Shown piece by piece: positions 39,596 to 47,858 of a DNA stretch of 64,000 bases. Each line of letters starts with the position of its first letter. The first letter of the stretch is position 1. The notes beneath the pieces are model-generated. The model was not told the DNA's origin. It made no database searches and worked only from the letters and a program-made list of their open reading frames with translations. A program made the position numbers and the translations under genes. This DNA is from Patescibacteria group bacterium (GTDB lineage Bacteria > Patescibacteriota > Minisyncoccia > UBA6257 > GWB1-50-10), in the NCBI GenBank assembly GCA_040757555.1, contig JBFLWN010000001.1, forward strand, positions 53,128-117,127. The letters run 5' to 3'.

Positions 39596-39658
39596 TTTTT
39601 ATTATTCAGAAAAAACTTCACTCACTTTATTTATTTTATCAAAAAAAATATCTTTTAC

Positions 39659-39732
39659 TGGTGCGGGCAAGGAGAATCGAACTCCTGTCTCAACCTTGGC
39701 AAGGTCGTGTTCTACCACTAAACCATGCCCGC
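39659..39732 (-). tRNA. tRNA-Gly (GCC), CCA encoded
   Basis: Cloverleaf; loop TTGCCAA. Confidence 0.85.
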
Positions 39733-39769
39733 TCAATCGGTATTCGTTGAAATTTTCAATTCGTAATTC

Positions 39770-39940
39770 CTAATTTTTAACAGCGGGAGAGGGAATGGTC
39801 GGTCCTTTTGTGTAGGGATCCCCGACAGGACCCTTGAATTGCACAGGCGCCTCAGCACGATCATTGATAAAAACAAACATAATCACCCCAACCAAAAGAA
39901 GGATAAAAACCAACAAAATAAGCTTGTTTCTTTTCTCCAT
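39770..39940 (-). CDS. Small single-TM protein between two tRNA genes
   Basis: ORF; start set at MEKRNK. Confidence 0.3.
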   Translation of the reverse strand: MEKRNKLILLVFILLLVGVIMFVFINDRAEAPVQFKGPVGDPYTKGPTIPSPAVKN

Positions 39941-39995
39941 TCTCTTAATTCTATTGTAATAAAAAATATGGAATAAATCCATATTTTTTATTCTG

Positions 39996-40067
39996 TGCCC
40001 TCGAGAGGAGTCGAACCTCTGTTACGAGATCCGCAATCTCGCGTCCTATCCATTGAACGACGAGGGC
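39996..40067 (-). tRNA. tRNA-Arg (anticodon reads GCG)
   Basis: Cloverleaf with perfect CGAGA/TCTCG anticodon stem; loop TTGCGGA. Confidence 0.7.
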
Positions 40068-40136
40068 GTCGTCTCTCTTTCTTCAAAATGATAATACTAC
40101 ATTATTAAATACTTACAAGAAAAAACTAATAAACTG

Positions 40137-40637
40137 TTAAAACCCAATATAATCAAAAATAATATCAATAATTGATTCATCGTGCTCCTCTTCGGGAAGT
40201 TTTTCCAAAAGAATTTCTCGTGCTCTCTTCGCGAGTTCTGAGTCAATTGGGATATGAATGGTAGGATTAATCATTGATTTCTTTCTCACTATAATTTCAT
40301 CCAGATATCCTTCGCGTGAACGCATTGCGAAACTTTCAATTTGATCATATTCAAGTGCAACCACTTTTCCGATATATACTCCCTTATCTGAAATAGTGAA
40401 TTCAAATATCTGAGGGCGACGACGTGCAAACATAATAATCAATGCCCCCGCAATGAGTGAAAACGCTCCAAAGAAAAAATTTCCCTTCAAAAAAGAAAAA
40501 ATAGAAATTCCACCCGCTATCACTACAACCCACACAAACCATTTTGTGGATTTCTCAGAATGACTATATTCTGCAGCTTTCCATGTTATACTTGTCCCCG
40601 TCTCTCCTTTTTCTTCAATTTCTTTTTTCTTTTCCAT
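40137..40637 (-). CDS. Hypothetical membrane protein (2 TM, PH-like C-terminus)
   Basis: ORF with TM segments. Confidence 0.4.
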   Translation of the reverse strand: MEKKKEIEEKGETGTSITWKAAEYSHSEKSTKWFVWVVVIAGGISIFSFLKGNFFFGAFSLIAGALIIMFARRRPQIFEFTISDKGVYIGKVVALEYDQIESFAMRSREGYLDEIIVRKKSMINPTIHIPIDSELAKRAREILLEKLPEEEHDESIIDIIFDYIGF

Positions 40638-40720
40638 TGTTTAAGTATAAATGTTTTTAACAACAATCCCAAATTTATCCGCTTATGACGGAGGGAATCC
40701 TCTTCCCCTATTCACAACTA

Positions 40721-40865
40721 GGGGGAATCGCCCGCGACTCAAAATGTTTCCGTCGAAACATTTTGGCCCGGGCACCGCCTCGCGTACTCGTCTACTGACT
40801 CACATACACTCCGGCGTTCGATTCACCACGCGAAACAAGCAGTTGTTTCGCTTTGGGACAAAATA
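40721..40865 (-). repeat. tRNA-Glu-linked mini-element A (core homologous to B and C; only 9-nt tRNA 3'-end copy remains)
   Basis: Aligned by eye to elements B and C; sits 3' of tRNA-Glu after its terminator hairpin. Confidence 0.7.
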
Positions 40866-40893
40866 AAAAACCTGGTAGGTTTTTTATTCTTTG

Positions 40894-40965
40894 TAGTCCC
40901 AAGGGGAATCGAACCCCTATTTCCGCCGTGAAAGGGCGATGTCCTAACCGTTAGACGATGGGACC
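40894..40965 (-). tRNA. tRNA-Glu (TTC)
   Basis: Cloverleaf; loop CTTTCAC. Confidence 0.85.
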
Positions 40966-41036
40966 AGACACAAACAAAGTGTATCCTGACTTATTTATAA
41001 AATCAATTTTTTGACGCATCTGCAAAAATTGTAAGT

Positions 41037-41122
41037 GCGGAAGGTGGAGGATTCGAACCTCCGATGCCTTGCGGCATACCGCATTTCAAGTGCGGCGCAT
41101 TCGACCACTCTGCCAACCTTCC
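41037..41122 (-). tRNA. tRNA-Ser (TGA)
   Basis: Long variable arm; loop CTTGAAA. Confidence 0.85.
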
Positions 41123-41162
41123 AGTGTCAAAAATAGTGTACCCTAGGATATCTATTTGGTAA

Positions 41163-41268
41163 ATCCCGTTAGAAGTTCATTTGGTGCACTAAGCCCACTT
41201 GTTTACTAAAAGATCCATCATTATTCATTCTTAATTTGGAATATTAGGCGTGCTACTTTTAACGGGAT
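41163..41268. repeat. Degenerate MITE-like element with ATCCCGTTA / TAACGGGAT termini
   Basis: Shares terminal inverted-repeat core with 13488 and 60031 copies; interior diverged. Confidence 0.4.
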
Positions 41269-41416
41269 AAATCCCCTGGAAAATAGCCAAAAATAGGGCC
41301 TTGACAGGGGTATTGACTTATTCTGTGTAACATGCTAGAATATATTCAGAATTAGGTAATAAAAAATTATTTACTAATTGATAACAATAAATAAAAAAAA
41401 TCCTCAGGAGGATCCA

Positions 41417-42142
41417 ATGACTACCGATCAAAAAACCCGTTTAGGCATCTTAATAGTGCTAGTATTAATTCTTGCTGTTTCATTATTAAACTGGTTTAAA
41501 GCACCAACAGCTGACGACATGACTAATTCAGTTAATGTCGGAGCTGTAAAAATTGATAGTTCCCTGAATGCTTTGGGAAAAAAAGTTGATGTAACAAACG
41601 AAACACTTAAAACCACAAATAGTACGCTTGGTGATATCAGTGGGTACACAAGTGACATCGCGGAAAATGCAGGAAACATCGCAAACAATACTTATTACAG
41701 CTCTCTTGAATCGAGACGTGCAGAAAAAGCCCGTGAAGATTCTGTTGTCAAAACAAAAAAATTAGAAAAAGCGCAGAAAGCAGTAGAAGATGCGCAGAAA
41801 GAACTGGAAGCCGTAAAAAATCCAAACAAACCAGTGGTTGTTGCACCATCATCAAATAATCCAAATGGAGATCTATTAAGTTCCATTGGGACAATGATTG
41901 ATGGTAAATTGAAACCGATATCTGATCGCCTTGGAAATCTTGAAACTGGGCAAAAAACAATGGAAACCCGGATGACTAGTTTGGAAACCCGGATGACAAC
42001 AATCGAAACGGATGTCAATAAAATGACATCTCTTTCAGATATTAATGCGCGCATTTCTCTTGGGGAGGAAGGATATCTCAAAATGAAAAAGAAACAAATG
42101 CGGGAACAGAAGGACTGCGACGACTTGTCGGGAAATAAATAA
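41417..42142 (+). CDS. Hypothetical membrane-anchored coiled-coil protein
   Basis: RBS AGGAGGA; -35 TTGACA / -10 TAGAAT upstream; N-terminal TM; repeated 'METRMTSLETRMTT' heptads. Confidence 0.5.
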   Translation: MTTDQKTRLGILIVLVLILAVSLLNWFKAPTADDMTNSVNVGAVKIDSSLNALGKKVDVTNETLKTTNSTLGDISGYTSDIAENAGNIANNTYYSSLESRRAEKAREDSVVKTKKLEKAQKAVEDAQKELEAVKNPNKPVVVAPSSNNPNGDLLSSIGTMIDGKLKPISDRLGNLETGQKTMETRMTSLETRMTTIETDVNKMTSLSDINARISLGEEGYLKMKKKQMREQKDCDDLSGNK

Positions 42143-42197
42143 CGAATTTTTATAATAATTAAGAGCGAAGGAAAAACCTTCGCTCTTAAACTTTTTG

Positions 42198-42270
42198 TGG
42201 ACCGTGCGGGATTTGAACCCGCTACCTTTCGCATGCCATGCGAACGCTCTACCAATTGAGCTAACGGCCC
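42198..42270 (-). tRNA. tRNA-Ala (GGC)
   Basis: G3:U70 identity pair; loop ATGGCAT. Confidence 0.8.
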
Positions 42271-42947
42271 ATTGTAATTACTTTTATACTTCCTAATAGA
42301 TCATTTAACACTTCTGCGGAGAAATAATCAATTCGGCACACTCCTTTATAGTCAGGTTTTTTTGATATAATTCCTCTTGTTCTCGGATCAATGCGCGCTA
42401 AATAAAATTGTTTGCGTGGAATTTTTGTTACCCCAACCCAAAAATTTTCCAGAGTATTTATATCTTGCCCAACCCTACATTGCACCGTACATCGAAACTT
42501 AGTCTCATCAATAACATAATTTTTCCTCAATAGTTCCAAAAATAATGAAATTATCTTTGGATCTGAATTTCCAAATACTATCGAACCACGATTTGGATTT
42601 TTTGATCCTTCCCCCAGGTAGAGTGTTGTAAGAACAATTTTTGCGATGTTTTTATTGTCCAACAGATGAAAGAGATTTTTATTTTTCTCGAAGAAAAAAA
42701 CATTTTTTTCATTTTTTATTCTTTTTTTCTTTTCTTGTGCTGCAATTCTCGCTTTTTTTAAGGAATTTTCCTTTGTTTTTTTAAGTATTCCCGCAATTAT
42801 GGGATTTTTTTCAAGTCCATGAAACCAAAACGAAAATGTAGATTTTGGGATATGTATTTTTAGTAGGGACTCTATTTCGATATATGTCTTCCCCTGTTTC
42901 CGTAATTCAATCGCTTTTTCTTTCACAATCCTTTGATATGTGCGCAT
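42261..42947 (-). CDS. Hypothetical HTH / LAGLIDADG-like (homing-endonuclease-like) protein
   Basis: N-terminal HTH-like segment; 'TLYLGEGSKN' weak LAGLIDADG-like motif; stop overlaps tRNA-Ala 5' end. Confidence 0.35.
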   Translation of the reverse strand: MRTYQRIVKEKAIELRKQGKTYIEIESLLKIHIPKSTFSFWFHGLEKNPIIAGILKKTKENSLKKARIAAQEKKKRIKNEKNVFFFEKNKNLFHLLDNKNIAKIVLTTLYLGEGSKNPNRGSIVFGNSDPKIISLFLELLRKNYVIDETKFRCTVQCRVGQDINTLENFWVGVTKIPRKQFYLARIDPRTRGIISKKPDYKGVCRIDYFSAEVLNDLLGSIKVITMGR

Positions 42948-43003
42948 ATGTGTATTGTACCATAGAATACTTCAACGTACACACTCTAAAAAAAAAAATC
43001 AAA

Positions 43004-43303
43004 CTAACAACTCTTTGATATCTCTATTATTTTTTCAAAATTATCTTCTTCTCTCGTTTTATTTTTTCTTTTAAATCCACATCGTTCACATTTCTGGGTG
43101 AGAATCCATTCATCTCCTTTTTTCTCAACGCTTATTGGCTCCATCATTCCTTTACACGTTTCCAATCGGTCTCCTGGATTTTTATCAACATGTTTACTCC
43201 ACAAACAACGCGGACAATGATTGGTATATCCATCCCCCGACACATTCATTCCGCATTTCTCACATACAAAATTTTCTTCGTTTCTCTGAAATTTCTTTTC
43301 CAT
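43004..43303 (-). CDS. RNHCP-domain zinc-ribbon protein
   Basis: 'CEKCG...YTNHCPRCLWSKH...CERCG' motif. Confidence 0.6.
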   Translation of the reverse strand: MEKKFQRNEENFVCEKCGMNVSGDGYTNHCPRCLWSKHVDKNPGDRLETCKGMMEPISVEKKGDEWILTQKCERCGFKRKNKTREEDNFEKIIEISKSC

Positions 43304-43308
43304 TCTGT

Positions 43309-43381
43309 GCGCGATAGAGGACTCGAACCTCTGGCCTTCACAATGTCAATGTGACGCTCTAACCAGCTGAGCTAATCGCGC
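43309..43381 (-). tRNA. tRNA-Val (GAC)
   Basis: Cloverleaf; loop TTGACAT. Confidence 0.85.
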
Positions 43382-43698
43382 GTATTTTTTTCCTTGCGCT
43401 CTTCTTTCATTTTTTTCAAAGCATCGGAAATTTTTTCATTGGGATATTTTATACTCGCTTCCACTACATCAGAAAAATTTTCTTCTACCCCATTTACTGG
43501 AATTTTGTCGCCAACTTTCGTAAATCCCATTCCCACCTTTCCCCGTTCTGGATCGTTTCGTCTCACCATGAGTGTGTCTGTCGTTTCCTCTACGGTAAAA
43601 CTATAAGGAATCTCACTCTTTACTCGCTCAAGCATCTTTGTGAGTCTTTTATCTTCCGCATCGGAGATTTTATTGTACTCAAATTTAGCTCGTTCCAC
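43372..43698 (-). CDS. Hypothetical protein
   Basis: ORF only. Confidence 0.35.
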   Translation of the reverse strand: MERAKFEYNKISDAEDKRLTKMLERVKSEIPYSFTVEETTDTLMVRRNDPERGKVGMGFTKVGDKIPVNGVEENFSDVVEASIKYPNEKISDALKKMKEERKEKNTRD

Positions 43699-43785
43699 GG
43701 ACTAAGAATAGCAGATAAAAAAGGATTTCCGCAAGCGAAAAGGTTGCGATAGTCATTTATTTTTGCAATGATAAACAAGGTATTT

Positions 43786-43857
43786 GCCCCCGTAGTTCAA
43801 TGGATAGAACAGGTCCGTCCTAAGGACAAAATGGGAGTTCGATTCTCTCTGGGGGCA
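43786..43857 (+). tRNA. tRNA-Arg (CCT)
   Basis: Cloverleaf; anticodon CCT. Confidence 0.75.
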
Positions 43858-43945
43858 CATACGAAAAATATTTTCGTAGGGAGGGGTGGCTGACCACCGC
43901 CCTTGGCGGGGCCCCGCTTTTTAAGCGGCGGGTGGTCGGAATAAA

Positions 43946-44191
43946 ATGTATTACACATATATTTTAAAAAGTGAAAAGACTGGGAAACATTATGTCGGTT
44001 CCTGTGAAAATATCGAATCGAGACTGAAACGACATACCTCGGGAAGAAATAAATCTACTAAAGCAGGAATTCCATGGAAACTTATTTATTTCGAGGCATT
44101 CTTAACGAAACAGGATTCATATAGACGCGAATTTCAAATAAAAAGTTTTAAGGGTGGTGAAGCATTTAAAAAGTTGATAATATCTAACTAA
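43946..44191 (+). CDS. GIY-YIG family nuclease (small, stand-alone)
   Basis: 'YTYILKSEKTGKHYVGSCENIESRLKRH' GIY-YIG core. Confidence 0.75.
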   Translation: MYYTYILKSEKTGKHYVGSCENIESRLKRHTSGRNKSTKAGIPWKLIYFEAFLTKQDSYRREFQIKSFKGGEAFKKLIISN

Positions 44192-44196
44192 TATAT

Positions 44197-44283
44197 GGAG
44201 GGGTGGCTGAGTGGTCGAAGGCACACGACTCGAAATCGTGCAGGGATGAAAGTCCCTCGAGAGTTCAAATCTCTCCCCCTCCG
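44197..44283 (+). tRNA. tRNA-Ser (CGA)
   Basis: Long variable arm; loop CTCGAAA; terminator hairpin after. Confidence 0.85.
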
Positions 44284-44450
44284 CAAAACAACAACGCTTT
44301 TGGCGTTGTATTGTTTTATAGAGTGGATAAGAGATTTGAAGGGTATTTGAAAAAGGCAAACTGCTTTGCGTTTTTCAAAACCAAGACCTTGACACCAAAC
44401 CCCGTTCTGGTGTTTAGTGTATGTAGAACTATTTATATAAGAGGTGGCAC

Positions 44451-45179
44451 GTGGAAAAAAATGAAAAATATTTTGTATGGAGTTTTATATTCGAATCCGA
44501 TCTCATTGAACAAATTCCTAACAACCGACAACAACTTCGCGATGATATCATTGCCGAGAAACAAGATGGACACGTTGGCGCTATTCTCTTCGCTCGCTCT
44601 AAGGCAGACAAACAAGAGATGATTGATGAGGATTTTATAAAAACCATCCAGAAACTGATTTGTGCCGAACAACACCTGAAGGGCGCAAAGAAAATGAAAG
44701 ATGAAACAATTGGAAAATATCGTGAAGGAAATGTATCCGTGGTTTCAAAATATCCTGTATTTACAACCGGAGGAATTACATGGGTTAAAAAAATTTTGAA
44801 AAAAGGACCAGATCCAAGGCTTGTCCCCAAATTGATGGAAGAATGGGTAGAAAGTGTTCTGGAGTGGGAGAAAAATTTCAAATCATTTTCACCGGAAGAA
44901 AACGTGAAAAGAATTGCGGATTTCCATTTTGATTTTGAAGATATTCATCCATTTGCTGATGGCAACGGAAGAACCGGGAGAATACTTACCTACTACATGC
45001 TCCGCTACGCAAAACTCAATCAATTTATCTTTTGGGAATGCACAAAATCATACGATTATTATCCGGCATTCAAAGATAAAAAATTAATGCAAGAATATTT
45101 TCGAATTCACATATTTGAATCAAGAAAAATAGCTGGAAGAGTTGAATCGCTCACTGAAGATGAAATTGTCATATTTTAA
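44451..45179 (+). CDS. Fic/Doc family protein (AMPylase-type)
   Basis: 'HPFADGNGRTGR' Fic motif; GTG start, true start uncertain. Confidence 0.75.
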   Translation: MEKNEKYFVWSFIFESDLIEQIPNNRQQLRDDIIAEKQDGHVGAILFARSKADKQEMIDEDFIKTIQKLICAEQHLKGAKKMKDETIGKYREGNVSVVSKYPVFTTGGITWVKKILKKGPDPRLVPKLMEEWVESVLEWEKNFKSFSPEENVKRIADFHFDFEDIHPFADGNGRTGRILTYYMLRYAKLNQFIFWECTKSYDYYPAFKDKKLMQEYFRIHIFESRKIAGRVESLTEDEIVIF

Positions 45180-45210
45180 TACAGAAAATCCGCTTAAAAG
45201 CGGATTTTTA

Positions 45211-45395
45211 TTTGTGCCCGGGGTCGGACTCAAACAAAATTTCATAAACGAAATTTTTTGAAACCTTGCGGTTCCAATACCTCCACCACGGGGAAACTCC
45301 TGTTTCCCCGACCCCTTTTCCGTTCAGGGCCGGCTAAAATAAAAAACAATTGCATTAAATACAATTGTTTTTCTGTTTGTGCCCGGGGTCGGACT
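45211..45395 (-). repeat. tRNA-Leu-linked mini-element E: 143-bp core bounded by 21-bp direct repeats (45211-45231, 45375-45395) = tRNA-Leu 3' end + CAAA
   Basis: Direct comparison; core homologous to element D. Confidence 0.8.
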
Positions 45396-45462
45396 CGAAC
45401 CGACACGTCCTTGCGGACAACAGATCTTAAGTCTGTCGTGGCTGCCATTACACCACCCGGGC
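45380..45462 (-). tRNA. tRNA-Leu (TAA)
   Basis: Long variable arm; loop CTTAAGA. Confidence 0.85.
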
Positions 45463-45548
45463 GTTTTTTAATTCTTTTATATTCTGTTTCAATTTTGAAT
45501 AAAAAACAAGCGCCTTCATTCAACGAAAGCGCTTCTCATAGACAAGCG

Positions 45549-46027: not shown

Positions 46028-47476
46028 TTAAATAAAAATAAGTGTATCCCCGATGCGAATATCAATATCACTTTCCGCTAACAGTCCCGCTTCAACTCCC
46101 GTCTCTGCTGATGAGACATCTTTTCTTCCTGACTGAAGATTTAAAATTTTTCCACTTCCAATTAATTTCCCTCCTCTCCATAAATCAAAAGTGCCCTGAT
46201 TTTTCACTGGTCCGAGAATTACTTTTCCTCCTACAATTCGTTCCTTCCCCTTTCCTCCAAATACTCCCAATATTTCAATACTCGGCATTTCCTTCGGATT
46301 CCTTCTTTTTATGTATTCAATCAACTCTTTCTCAAGTTCATAAATGATATCAGACTGAATCATCATCACTTTTTCATTTCGCGCCATATTGAGCGCTGCC
46401 TTATCTACCCTCACTTTAAATCCAAGAATAATTCCATGTGTACTCTGCGCAAATTTTATATCGGTTTCATAAATATCTCCGACACTTGCTGATGCGATAA
46501 TAATCGGCCGATCGCTCGGAATGCGTTCCGCAATTCCCCTTACCGCCTCCAAGGATCCCGCTTCGTCTGCTTTCACCACCAACGAAATAGTTGCTTCTTC
46601 TTTTATATTTTTTCCAAGTCCGGTTTGCACCGATGTATTCCCTACATGAAGTTTTTTTATTTCGTCTCCGCACACAAACTGCTCTCCAACTTCAGGAAGT
46701 GTTTCAAACCCAAGAATAAGTGCAGGGGCACTTGGCACAAGTGATTTTGCTGATTTCCCGAGAAAATCATTTAATATTTTTATCTTTCCCTTTGCACTCT
46801 TTGTGGCGATGACTTCCCCTTGAGATAGTGTTCCGTTTTTCACAATCACTCCCACAATTCCTCCGCGACGCGGATCAAGCTTACTTGTGATCACAACTCC
46901 CGTTGGACTTGCGGACGGATCATATGAGAGATCCTGCATCTCCGATGCGAGGATAACTAAATCCAAAAGATCGTTTACTCCTTCTCCGGTTTTCGCTGAA
47001 ATCGGATGCCACGACACATCTCCTCCAAATCCCTCGAGATACAGTCCAATATTTGCGAGATCGGATTTCGTCTTCTCAATATTCGCGTTTGGTTTATCAA
47101 TTTTATTGATTGCAACAATGCACGTGATATTTTCTTTTTTTATATATTCAAGCGCATTCTGCGTTTGTGGTTTCACCCCATCGTCGGCAGCCACCACGAG
47201 AATTGCGAGATCGGCGATACGCGCACTGTGTTCTCGCATCTTCGAAAATGCCTCATGTCCCGGGGTATCGATAAATGTAATTTTGCTTCCTTTGTGAGTA
47301 ATCTCATACGCCCCAATAGACTGAGTGATTCCTCCTGCCTCCTTTTCTGCCACGGTGGTTTTGCGGATATAATCAAGAAGCGTGGTTTTTCCATGATCCA
47401 CATGTCCCATAACTGCGATGACTGGAGGACGTTTTTCCATGTTTACAACCGTAACAGAGAAAACACATAAATACAA
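46028..47476 (-). CDS. infB: Translation initiation factor IF-2 (short form: G domain to C-terminus only)
   Basis: 'VIAVMGHVDHGKTTLLD' G1, 'DTPGHEAF' G3, 'NKIDK' G4; likely start at MEKRPP (47440). Confidence 0.85.
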   Translation of the reverse strand: MYLCVFSVTVVNMEKRPPVIAVMGHVDHGKTTLLDYIRKTTVAEKEAGGITQSIGAYEITHKGSKITFIDTPGHEAFSKMREHSARIADLAILVVAADDGVKPQTQNALEYIKKENITCIVAINKIDKPNANIEKTKSDLANIGLYLEGFGGDVSWHPISAKTGEGVNDLLDLVILASEMQDLSYDPSASPTGVVITSKLDPRRGGIVGVIVKNGTLSQGEVIATKSAKGKIKILNDFLGKSAKSLVPSAPALILGFETLPEVGEQFVCGDEIKKLHVGNTSVQTGLGKNIKEEATISLVVKADEAGSLEAVRGIAERIPSDRPIIIASASVGDIYETDIKFAQSTHGIILGFKVRVDKAALNMARNEKVMMIQSDIIYELEKELIEYIKRRNPKEMPSIEILGVFGGKGKERIVGGKVILGPVKNQGTFDLWRGGKLIGSGKILNLQSGRKDVSSAETGVEAGLLAESDIDIRIGDTLIFI

Positions 47477-47541
47477 GAAAAACCATAATAAATCTACTTG
47501 AATGCAGATCTGTTTTGCATTATTCTCAATTGGTAAGTCTT

Positions 47542-47628
47542 GGAGGCGTGGCTGAGTGGTTTAAAGCGGCATCCTGCTAAGATGTCGACCGGGAAACCGG
47601 TCCGAAGGTTCGAATCCTTCCGCCTCCG
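47542..47628 (+). tRNA. tRNA-Ser (GCT)
   Basis: Long variable arm; loop CTGCTAA. Confidence 0.85.
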
Positions 47629-47815
47629 CAAGAAAACAGCGCATTTATGTGCTGTTTTTGTATGCGGATGCGGGAGCGAGACAACTGCTTGTCTCGCGTC
47701 CGGATTCGAACGCCGGAGCATGCGCAACTCAGTAGAATTGCACGCGAGGCGGTGGCTAGACAAATTCTCTCTGACGAGAGAGAATTTAGTCAAAGCCGAA
47801 TCCTTCCGCCTCCGC
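47611..47815 (+). repeat. tRNA-Ser(GCT)-linked mini-element C: 168-bp core (includes tRNA terminator hairpin) bounded by 19-bp direct repeats (47611-47629, 47797-47815) = tRNA T-loop/acceptor 3' strand
   Basis: Direct comparison; core homologous to A and B. Confidence 0.8.
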
Positions 47816-47858
47816 CAAAATTAGACCCCATCCGAAAAACAGAAAAGTATAAATAACT

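Follow-up and report, generated by a model that had tools for sequence, protein, structure and literature searches.

What is a nuclease gene doing inside a tRNA operon, and why is it preceded by the opening nucleotides of the very tRNA gene that follows it? The question is raised by a stretch of 64,000 nucleotides (nt) from a Patescibacteria group bacterium (contig JBFLWN010000001.1 of assembly GCA_040757555.1; G+C content, 39%), which we refer to in its full length as the window. Here, an open reading frame (ORF) for an 81-amino acid (aa) GIY-YIG protein lies between the genes of tRNA-Arg(CCT) and tRNA-Ser(CGA), and an initial annotation made from the sequence alone had interpreted the repeated tRNA fragment in front of it as the target-site duplication of a homing-type insertion. 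Comparison with relatives revealed that a 317-bp segment is an insertion in the tRNA-Ser gene and that its architecture recurs beside numerous tRNA genes of other bacteria. We favor the reading that it is a homing-type cassette for which the tRNA sequence would serve as homology.

A 317-bp insertion in a tRNA-Ser gene

A scan of metagenome contigs with an internal 55-mer of tRNA-Ser(CGA) yielded 3 contigs (L087, L088, and L089; loci and contigs are cited by such numbers throughout). In L087, a syntenic metagenome relative that is approximately 97% identical to the window over the start of a 108-aa ORF and the intergenic region, precisely these 317 bp are absent: an identical tRNA-Ser comes directly after tRNA-Arg and a spacer of 21 nt, and the terminator behind it is also the same. 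The Arg/Ser(CGA) site is likewise empty in L088, and it is occupied in L089, the longer contig of L003. The tRNA-Ser(CGA) gene is 100% identical in the occupied L003/L089 and in the empty L087 and L088. Since the spacer of L087 has the same length as that of the window, the repeated fragment starts exactly where the resident tRNA-Ser begins, and the cassette (43880–44196) is formally inserted between nt 14 and 15 of the tRNA, in the D-loop. Thus, the comparison with relatives lacking the insert, which the initial annotation had proposed as a check, bears out an insertion. A second site is polymorphic as well: the junction of infB (46028–47476, − strand) and tRNA-Ser(GCT) at 47477–47629 is empty in the window, and in L001, L005, and L009 it holds the same series of parts.

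This series consists of (i) a left stub that copies the first nucleotides of the tRNA; (ii) a GC-rich hairpin element, which we designate H; (iii) a right stub that continues the tRNA sequence; and (iv) the ORF, which abuts the intact tRNA gene as the initial annotation had stated (Table 1). The left stub recurs exactly at 44197–44210, and its own position is 43880–43893, one base further than the previously given 43879–43892. The repeat can be extended to 16 of 17 matching nucleotides (43877–43893 against 44194–44210). What had been overlooked is the heptamer GTGGTCG directly 3′ of the hairpins (43932–43938); because it equals tRNA nt 15–21, the stub is in fact approximately 21–24 nt of tRNA split by H. 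The right stub ends 4 nt before the ATG of the ORF.

Table 1. Parts of the occupied tRNA-Arg/tRNA-Ser operon of the window.
Feature	Position	Strand	Evidence
tRNA-Arg(CCT), first gene of the operon holding the insert	43786–43858	+	ARAGORN; Rfam tRNA, 55.2 bits
Native Arg-Ser spacer, 21 nt, ATACGAAAAATATTTTCGTAG	43859–43879	+	19/21 nt identical, at equal length, in the empty site of L087
Left stub T′, GGAGGGGTGGCTGA, equal to tRNA-Ser(CGA) nt 1–14, last base A14	43880–43893	+	Exact 14-mer repeat
Element H, 38 nt, at D-loop position 14/15	43894–43931	+	Covariance model R1, 40.6 bits, E 4e-6
SL1 of H, GC-rich stem-loop adjacent to SL2	43894–43911	+	Comparative fold
SL2 of H, GC-rich stem-loop adjacent to SL1	43912–43931	+	Comparative fold
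Right stub GTGGTCGGAA, GTGGTCG equal to tRNA-Ser nt 15–21, then G-AA	43932–43941	+	Exact block match
GIY-YIG nuclease ORF, 81 aa, catalytic domain only	43946–44191	+	Pfam PF01541, E 2e-13
Gap TATAT, 5 nt, from ORF stop codon to tRNA	44192–44196	+	Sequence
tRNA-Ser(CGA), intact	44197–44284	+	ARAGORN, Rfam
Intrinsic-terminator-like hairpin and T-run closing the operon	44291–44319	+	Terminator scan; conserved in L087 and L089

With up to 2 mismatches allowed, the 14-mer has 3 matches in the 64-kb window against 0.14 expected, and all of them are at tRNA-Ser 5′ ends, the third being the start of tRNA-Ser(GCT) at 47542. Therefore, it is not a common upstream motif, the outcome that the initial annotation had named as fatal to its reading. 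Chance resemblance, or a decayed tandem tRNA duplicate that has nothing to do with the ORF, can be dismissed almost entirely: the repeat measures only 14 nt, and duplication of tRNA genes does occur, but all matches are at tRNA-Ser starts, and the series of stub, H, ORF, and tRNA recurs, with co-varying stubs, in dozens of independent assemblies. The recurring stubs, the further copies of H, and the empty-site comparison together refute it.

A protein identical to that of the window is recorded in a metagenome-assembled genome of Patescibacteria (Candidate Phyla Radiation, CPR), and an exact-protein look-up of the window ORF matched no contig. No second GIY-YIG copy was found within the window. 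The region of stub, H, and ORF (43859–44196) matched no Rfam family and no intron, even at E ≤ 1, and at the gathering threshold Rfam identified only tRNAs in the whole window. A simple consensus scan of the + strand from tRNA-Arg to the ORF revealed no sigma-70-like promoter.

Stubs and hairpins beside tRNA genes across the family

The family was sampled with 56 homologues and 80 genome loci, plus several contigs with individual homologues; the loci were searched with a narrower alignment (A2), the broad alignment (A1) being too diverse. A same-strand tRNA starts between −45 and +70 nt from the stop codon in 41 of the 95 distinct homologous ORFs, against 0.64 expected from the tRNA density of the flanks. 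The tRNAs concerned are Ser (all five anticodons), Tyr, Thr, Cys, Met, and Pro, and the gap from the ORF stop codon to the tRNA is −38 to +19 nt in most loci and up to +53 in L032. Of these 41 loci, 27 have a collinear copy of the 5′ part of their own tRNA in the 230 nt preceding the ORF, which is well above the null. The search for further copies of the module and their flanks, which the initial annotation had also suggested, thus uncovered a broad association with tRNA genes. Several GIY-YIG copies may occur in one genome, at different tRNAs and each with its own stub, and tandem arrays and truncated copies occur too.

A stub of nt 1–14 that matches the local tRNA is present in L001, L003, L005, L008, L010, L011, L028, L039, and L041. 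The stub co-varies with the local tRNA, as is seen in L001 (GGAGGCGTGGCCGA...GTGGTTGAAGGCA) and L005 (GGTGAGGTGGCTGA...GTGGCCGAAAG), and the right piece is longer elsewhere than in the window (nt 15–27 in L001, 16–30 in L041, and 15–24 in L003). In L031, L050, and L052, the stub does not match the adjacent tRNA. Among the homologues, the stub starts at about tRNA +1 and measures 7 to approximately 50 nt, and it is always interrupted by a GC-rich insert, which follows nt 14 (D-loop) in the clade of the window, the G of the anticodon loop (nt 34/35) in another clade, and, occasionally, nt 6/7, 21, or 60. A neighbour-joining tree, weak evidence with a protein as short as 81 aa, suggests that the position of the insert tracks the protein clade.

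These stubs qualify the initial interpretation. The insertion stands, and a homing-type event is its best reading; a target-site duplication in the proper sense would have a fixed length, whereas the stub varies, is split by H, and is taken from the tRNA adjoining the ORF. Ordinary transposition with a 14-bp target-site duplication, or the att duplication of an integrase at a tRNA gene, is accordingly a very improbable origin. A direct repeat does bracket the insert, and tRNA genes are classic integration sites, but the 317 bp hold a single 81-aa nuclease ORF and no transposase or integrase, and the repeat is variable in length, H-split, and always taken from about tRNA +1. Integrase att duplications involve the 3′ part of a tRNA, and here the duplicated part is the 5′ end.

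A longer arrangement exists in L013, L027, L032, L034, L050, L052, and L018, in which a stub of nt 1 to s is followed by H, a few nucleotides, the ORF, a complete tRNA, a spacer, a few nucleotides, a second H, and the tRNA from nt s+1 to its end. The outer acceptor strands pair with each other (7/7 in L034 and 6/7 in L050 and L052), and all of them differ from the enclosed tRNA; at these loci, therefore, the insert divides a resident tRNA gene and itself holds the working copy. L018 combines a left stub of Thr with a right stub of Tyr and has complete genes of both tRNAs within the insert; L032 has a duplicated terminator, too. The short form of the window, with one H and no downstream half, would then be a recombination product of the long form. 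There is also a mirror form, in which a full tRNA is followed by the ORF and an H-bearing 3′ part (L026 and L017). In Bacteroidota and Ignavibacteria, a full tRNA and the ORF are followed by a pseudo-tRNA in which a tetraloop hairpin takes the place of the anticodon arm; some of these arrangements form tandem arrays.

Homologous ORFs were also found away from tRNA genes. In L047 and L048 (2386–4182), they lie inside the 16S rRNA gene, that of L048 in the loop of 16S helix 6 (CCCTGTCCATC … ORF … GATGGACAGGG). L047 additionally carries a group I intron. An ORF sub-clade (L057, L072, L077, and L085; ~2480–2770) is bracketed by the arms of an inverted repeat of 13–14 nt (CCCCGTTAGAAAC … GTTTCTAACGGGG), the right arm containing the stop codon; the four intergenic contexts are unrelated to one another. 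By its layout, this sub-clade looks like a miniature inverted-repeat element with its own nuclease.

Element H was aligned from 25 copies or loci, and a covariance model was built from the alignment. It consists of two adjacent hairpins with the stems CC(A)CCGCC/GGCGGGG (SL1) and YCCCGC/GCGGGR (SL2); this fold is 91% paired, 6 of its 13 pairs are compensatory, and 0 of 500 shuffles were as good. The GC-rich structure at 43894–43931 had thus been rightly recognized in the initial annotation, but not its nested form: a nested single hairpin, the minimum-energy fold of the single sequence, was rejected because it shows no covariation and falls below the shuffles. The model detected approximately 51 distinct copies of H in 441 kb (the window and 82 loci), every one no more than ~520 nt from a GIY-YIG ORF; exactly one is in the window, where a second H was searched for and not found. 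Between the window and L089, stub and H are approximately 94% conserved, whereas the adjoining spacer between tRNA-Arg and the stub is not alignable and 51–65% of the synonymous sites of host genes differ, from which it follows that H is under selection. An intrinsic terminator was rejected as the identity of H, the T-rich loop being confined to the window copy and the loops differing elsewhere. One H can be nested within the SL1 loop of another (L003/L089, at L003 1225–1276, and L052, at 2860–2960). Further hairpins are located in the variable and T loops of a dead tRNA half in L034 (2900–2990); hairpin inserts seem to accumulate in the loops of inactivated tRNA copies.

Stub and H together end 2–7 nt before the ATG and hence overlap the ribosome-binding region of the ORF. 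The H model matches both strands, and neither the G-U versus C-A counts nor the sense and antisense energies single out one of them. Another possibility, to which we assign a low probability, is that a transcript or single-stranded DNA of the form stub(1–14)-H-stub(15–21) programmes the nuclease: H would be the scaffold for the protein, and the tRNA-derived flanks would anneal to the complementary strand in an intact tRNA gene, so that the cut would fall opposite the junction. Such a guide would suit a nuclease that has no targeting domain; H is conserved in sequence and structure, lies within the leader of the ORF itself, and always has sequence of the targeted tRNA on either side, the flanks varying with the tRNA while H stays constant. 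Against it, (i) the right flank can be as short as 6–7 nt; (ii) the stubs of L031, L050, and L052 do not fit the adjacent tRNA; (iii) the G-U versus C-A counts favor no RNA strand; (iv) the neighbouring intact tRNA would itself be a target; and (v) we know of no GIY-YIG enzyme that is guided by a nucleic acid.

The nuclease and a proposed homing mechanism

The protein matches PF01541 over residues 1–67 (50.9 bits against a cut-off of 22.6). Among 44 homologues, the catalytic residues of the superfamily (the tyrosines of the GIY and YIG motifs, Y5 and Y16, with R26 and E62) are invariant, and H30 and N31 are nearly so. The ORF is intact, and its ratio of nonsynonymous to synonymous divergence (dN/dS), 0.09–0.13, indicates purifying selection and thus a functional protein, presumably an active nuclease. 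The AF2 model (pLDDT 91.7) has the order of elements E-E-H-H-E-H-H, shows the β-β-α-α-β-α core fold of the superfamily, and superposes on Slx1, BH0048, and I-TevI. The best sequence match in the PDB by phmmer is the UPF0213 protein BH0048 (1ZG2; E 1.4e-7), which is also the top Foldseek match, followed by Slx1 (TM 0.70; rmsd, 2.0 Å); the I-TevI catalytic domain reaches a TM of 0.52. As a single domain in the range of ~80–110 aa that is closest to BH0048/YhbQ, the protein is UPF0213/YhbQ-like. By contrast, the intron-endonuclease family TIGR01453 scores 29.5 bits, below its cut-off of 56, and matches only residues 5–40. The chain ends at residue 81, and neither Pfam nor the AF2 model revealed a linker or a DNA-binding domain beyond the catalytic domain. 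The family comprises 28,003 clusters at 50% identity (E ≤ 1e-3), and its best-scoring 150 members are mostly 80–130 aa in length. Many family proteins have N-terminal extensions of 20–55 aa, which are plausibly translated stub or tRNA sequence.

We consider it more likely than not (at roughly 0.6) that the cassette is a homing-type selfish element which, by analogy with phage T4 SegB, exploits tRNA sequence as its homology. Its left end would be H together with tRNA nt 15–21, its body the minimal GIY-YIG gene, and its right end a fresh copy of tRNA nt 1–14, which would restore a complete tRNA-Ser with the resident nt 15–88; the original nt 1–14 would persist in front of it as a nonfunctional stub with H as its cap. 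Because the cassette lies inside the tRNA-Arg/tRNA-Ser operon, has no recognisable sigma-70 promoter of its own, and is followed by the terminator behind tRNA-Ser, it is probably expressed together with the tRNAs by operon read-through and released by tRNA processing. The nuclease would break an unoccupied tRNA gene, and repair would copy the cassette from the occupied allele, the homology arms being the stub on one side and, on the opposite side, the full tRNA or its other half, which travel with the target gene. With the tRNA itself supplying the homology, the genomic flanks need not match, which would explain the spread among tRNA genes in different contexts. The short form would arise from the long form when the replacement tRNA recombines with the downstream half. 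The most likely role of H is that of a cis site for binding or cutting by the nuclease, at a hairpin loop, since its sequence is conserved and would be unneeded for merely breaking the site.

This reading is supported by the presence/absence polymorphism at two sites, by the tRNA association and its stubs, by the confinement of H to the neighbourhood of GIY-YIG ORFs, by the long forms, by the purifying selection on the ORF and the conservation of stub and H, by the relatives inserted in the loop of 16S helix 6 or bracketed by inverted repeats, by the multiple copies in one genome, by the tandem arrays, and by the precedent of SegB. For other parts of the family, the foreign replacement tRNAs of L034, L050, and L052 speak in favor of transfer.

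Several points weigh against it: (i) cleavage and transfer are deduced from sequence comparison; (ii) the modelled protein has no DNA-binding domain, which leaves its choice of site unexplained, and every characterised GIY-YIG homing endonuclease that we know of has one; (iii) the rebuilt tRNA beside the cassette keeps an intact D-loop, so that self-immunity is unexplained; (iv) a left homology arm of 14 nt is short for RecA-type recombination; (v) mere disruption of the site would not require the conserved sequence of H; (vi) a search of viral contigs found no relatives; and (vii) between the window and L089, the proportion of differing synonymous sites (pS) of the ORF, 0.43, is close to the 0.51–0.65 of host genes. 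A recent transfer at the window site was examined as a candidate and is unsupported, the synonymous divergence of ORF and host being alike. For the same reason, loss from L087 and L088 and gain at this site are equally likely, and a long vertical residence followed by such loss would fit this site as well as recent homing does.

The similar divergence of ORF and host genes would also suit a domesticated host nuclease for repair or processing, kept in tRNA operons for its expression and without ongoing mobility; stub and H would then be a 5′ leader, a translational or stability element, possibly an autoregulatory binding site. We regard this as unlikely, although less so than a guided nuclease. 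Strong purifying selection, the conserved stub and H overlapping the ribosome-binding region, the very large number of protein clusters, and the nearest solved relatives, UPF0213 and Slx1, which are not homing enzymes, all speak for it. It is at odds, however, with presence and absence at two sites among relatives, with genomes in which several different tRNAs have a copy, every copy having a stub of its own, with resident tRNAs split around a foreign replacement tRNA, with copies in 16S rRNA and in inverted-repeat brackets, and with tandem arrays, truncated copies, and ORF-less scars.

A bolder extension of the homing reading addresses the choice of site. Recognition by DNA structure is attractive because the inserts are always in hairpin loops and the fold is Slx1-like. 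We tentatively entertain, well short of even odds, that the family represents unrecognised, very widespread autonomous elements of ~300 bp, whose Slx1-like, domain-less nuclease would target hairpin loops of structured-RNA genes by their structure, with H acting in cis. This would cover the tRNA D-loop, the anticodon loop, the T-arm, 16S helix 6, and the loop of H itself. The long form would split the resident tRNA and carry its only working copy, and the element would be addictive: were its two H-containing repeats to recombine, only a dead tRNA interrupted by H would remain.

Comparison with known systems and neighbouring observations

The nuclease family and free-standing homing genes are already known. 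SegB of phage T4, which close relatives lack, is a GIY-YIG homing endonuclease encoded in a tRNA gene cluster; it recognises a conserved stem-loop motif of tRNAs and spreads with the neighbouring tRNA genes by break repair (PMC2330249). The window cassette resembles SegB and the other Seg systems in having a free GIY-YIG gene among tRNA genes, in its presence/absence polymorphism, and in homologues that carry replacement tRNAs; it differs in its 81-aa protein with only a catalytic domain and in its cellular Patescibacteria host in place of a phage. SegB has ~220 aa with a DNA-binding region, and to our knowledge neither a tRNA stub nor an H-like hairpin has been reported for seg genes. UPF0213/YhbQ proteins (BH0048) share the size class and the single domain and give the best PDB match, and no link between them and tRNA genes was found described in the literature. 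Slx1, a structure-specific nuclease, acts together with Slx4 and contains a RING/PHD domain; the 81-aa window protein, characterised here by sequence and model, has no such domain. Unlike the intron type (I-TevI/TIGR01453), it falls below the profile cut-off and has no DNA-binding domain, and its locus contains no Rfam intron. Unlike a transposon or an integrase island, the cassette has no enzyme of that kind, its repeat is of variable length, and it is the 5′ part of the tRNA that is duplicated.

The geometry has its nearest conceptual counterpart in the archaeal tRNA-disruption model derived from Caldiarchaeum (Sugahara et al. 2012), where, in a heterogeneous population, a 5′ tRNA fragment precedes an inserted element that is followed by the full tRNA (PMC3293823). 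That element is archaeal, 1.8 kb in length, and recombinase-encoding, and its tRNA has spliced introns, whereas the window insert is bacterial, 0.3 kb in length, and encodes a nuclease, and its stub is capped by a conserved hairpin element. The rRNA genes of CPR bacteria carry endonuclease-bearing insertions, and the 16S helix 6 insertions of L047/L048 are like them in occupying the hairpin loop of a structured-RNA gene. Insertions in rRNA genes are tolerated in place, without duplication, whereas a tRNA gene must be rebuilt, hence the architecture of stub and replacement copy. Full-text searches of the literature turned up no account of GIY-YIG ORFs accompanied by tRNA stubs that a hairpin splits, of the long form in which a split resident tRNA encloses its replacement, or of the breadth of the association, although such absence is not proof of novelty.

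If the homing reading is true, the cassette, with its 81-aa nuclease and its hairpin of 38 nt, would rank with the smallest self-contained mobile elements known, and it would show a distinctive damage control in a tiny essential gene, the tRNA being rebuilt or replaced alongside and a capped stub being left behind. It would also offer a natural test of how a GIY-YIG protein with only a catalytic domain finds its target, whether by DNA structure, a cis hairpin, or a nucleic-acid guide, with a bearing on the origin of homing endonucleases and on the engineering of compact site-directed nucleases. Finally, such elements may underlie allele swaps and rearrangements at the tRNA genes of Patescibacteria, whose genomes are reduced.

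Stubs and H-bearing pseudo-tRNAs are also an annotation hazard, as they are miscalled as tRNAs. ARAGORN reported such H-bearing or hairpin-substituted pseudo-tRNAs in L026 (2752–2848, as a 97-nt ‘tRNA-Ser’) and, as ‘tRNA-???’, in L049 (2724–2799) and L056.

Further observations concern the tRNA genes around the cassette. Approximately 10 of the 73 positions of the tRNA-Arg(CCT) body (43786–43858) differ between the window and L087, whereas both flanks are ~97–98% identical, and the L087 allele resembles that of L089; this pattern suggests a gene-conversion-like swap of the tRNA body. Over 39600–45500, the gene order of the tRNA cluster differs between the window and L087, with breakpoints at tRNA genes, the block of Glu, Arg(GCG), and Ser(TGA) and the Fic gene being placed differently. 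In L088 (reverse strand), ~100 nt upstream of tRNA-Arg(CCT), a 12-nt stub identical to the 5′ end of the window tRNA-Arg is followed by several GC hairpins of a second type (TCTCCC-nnnn-GGGAGA) and then by a different tRNA-Arg allele, with no ORF; judging by its parts, this arrangement looks like the scar of a similar event at the neighbouring tRNA. At tRNA-Leu(TAA) (45379–45462, − strand), the last ~21–23 nt are repeated 143 nt downstream, at 45212–45235; within 45185–45462 (− strand), the two copies are separated by GC-rich hairpins, and each has a terminator-like hairpin behind it. Neither L089 nor L001 has this ORF-less ‘stub plus hairpin’ scar.

The stop codon of a 228-aa ORF (42261–42947, − strand) lies within the first 10 nt of tRNA-Ala(GGC) (42197–42270, − strand), the same geometry of an ORF abutting a tRNA 5′ end. 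The ORF is absent from L087, in which the RNHCP gene is directly followed by tRNA-Ala. A LAGLIDADG enzyme with its own stub was considered for this ORF and discarded, since Pfam and NCBIfam gave no match and the upstream sequence contains no tRNA-Ala stub; a ‘LYLGEGSK’ motif was noted by eye only. Lastly, a conserved GC-rich segment (…CAGTAGAAT…CGCGAGGCGGTGGCTAGA…; 47660–47830 in the window and 1700–1880 in L003), which had no Rfam match even at E ≤ 1, follows tRNA-Ser(GCT) in the window and tRNA-Ser(CGA) in L003, L087, L088, and L089, and may be an unannotated structured RNA.

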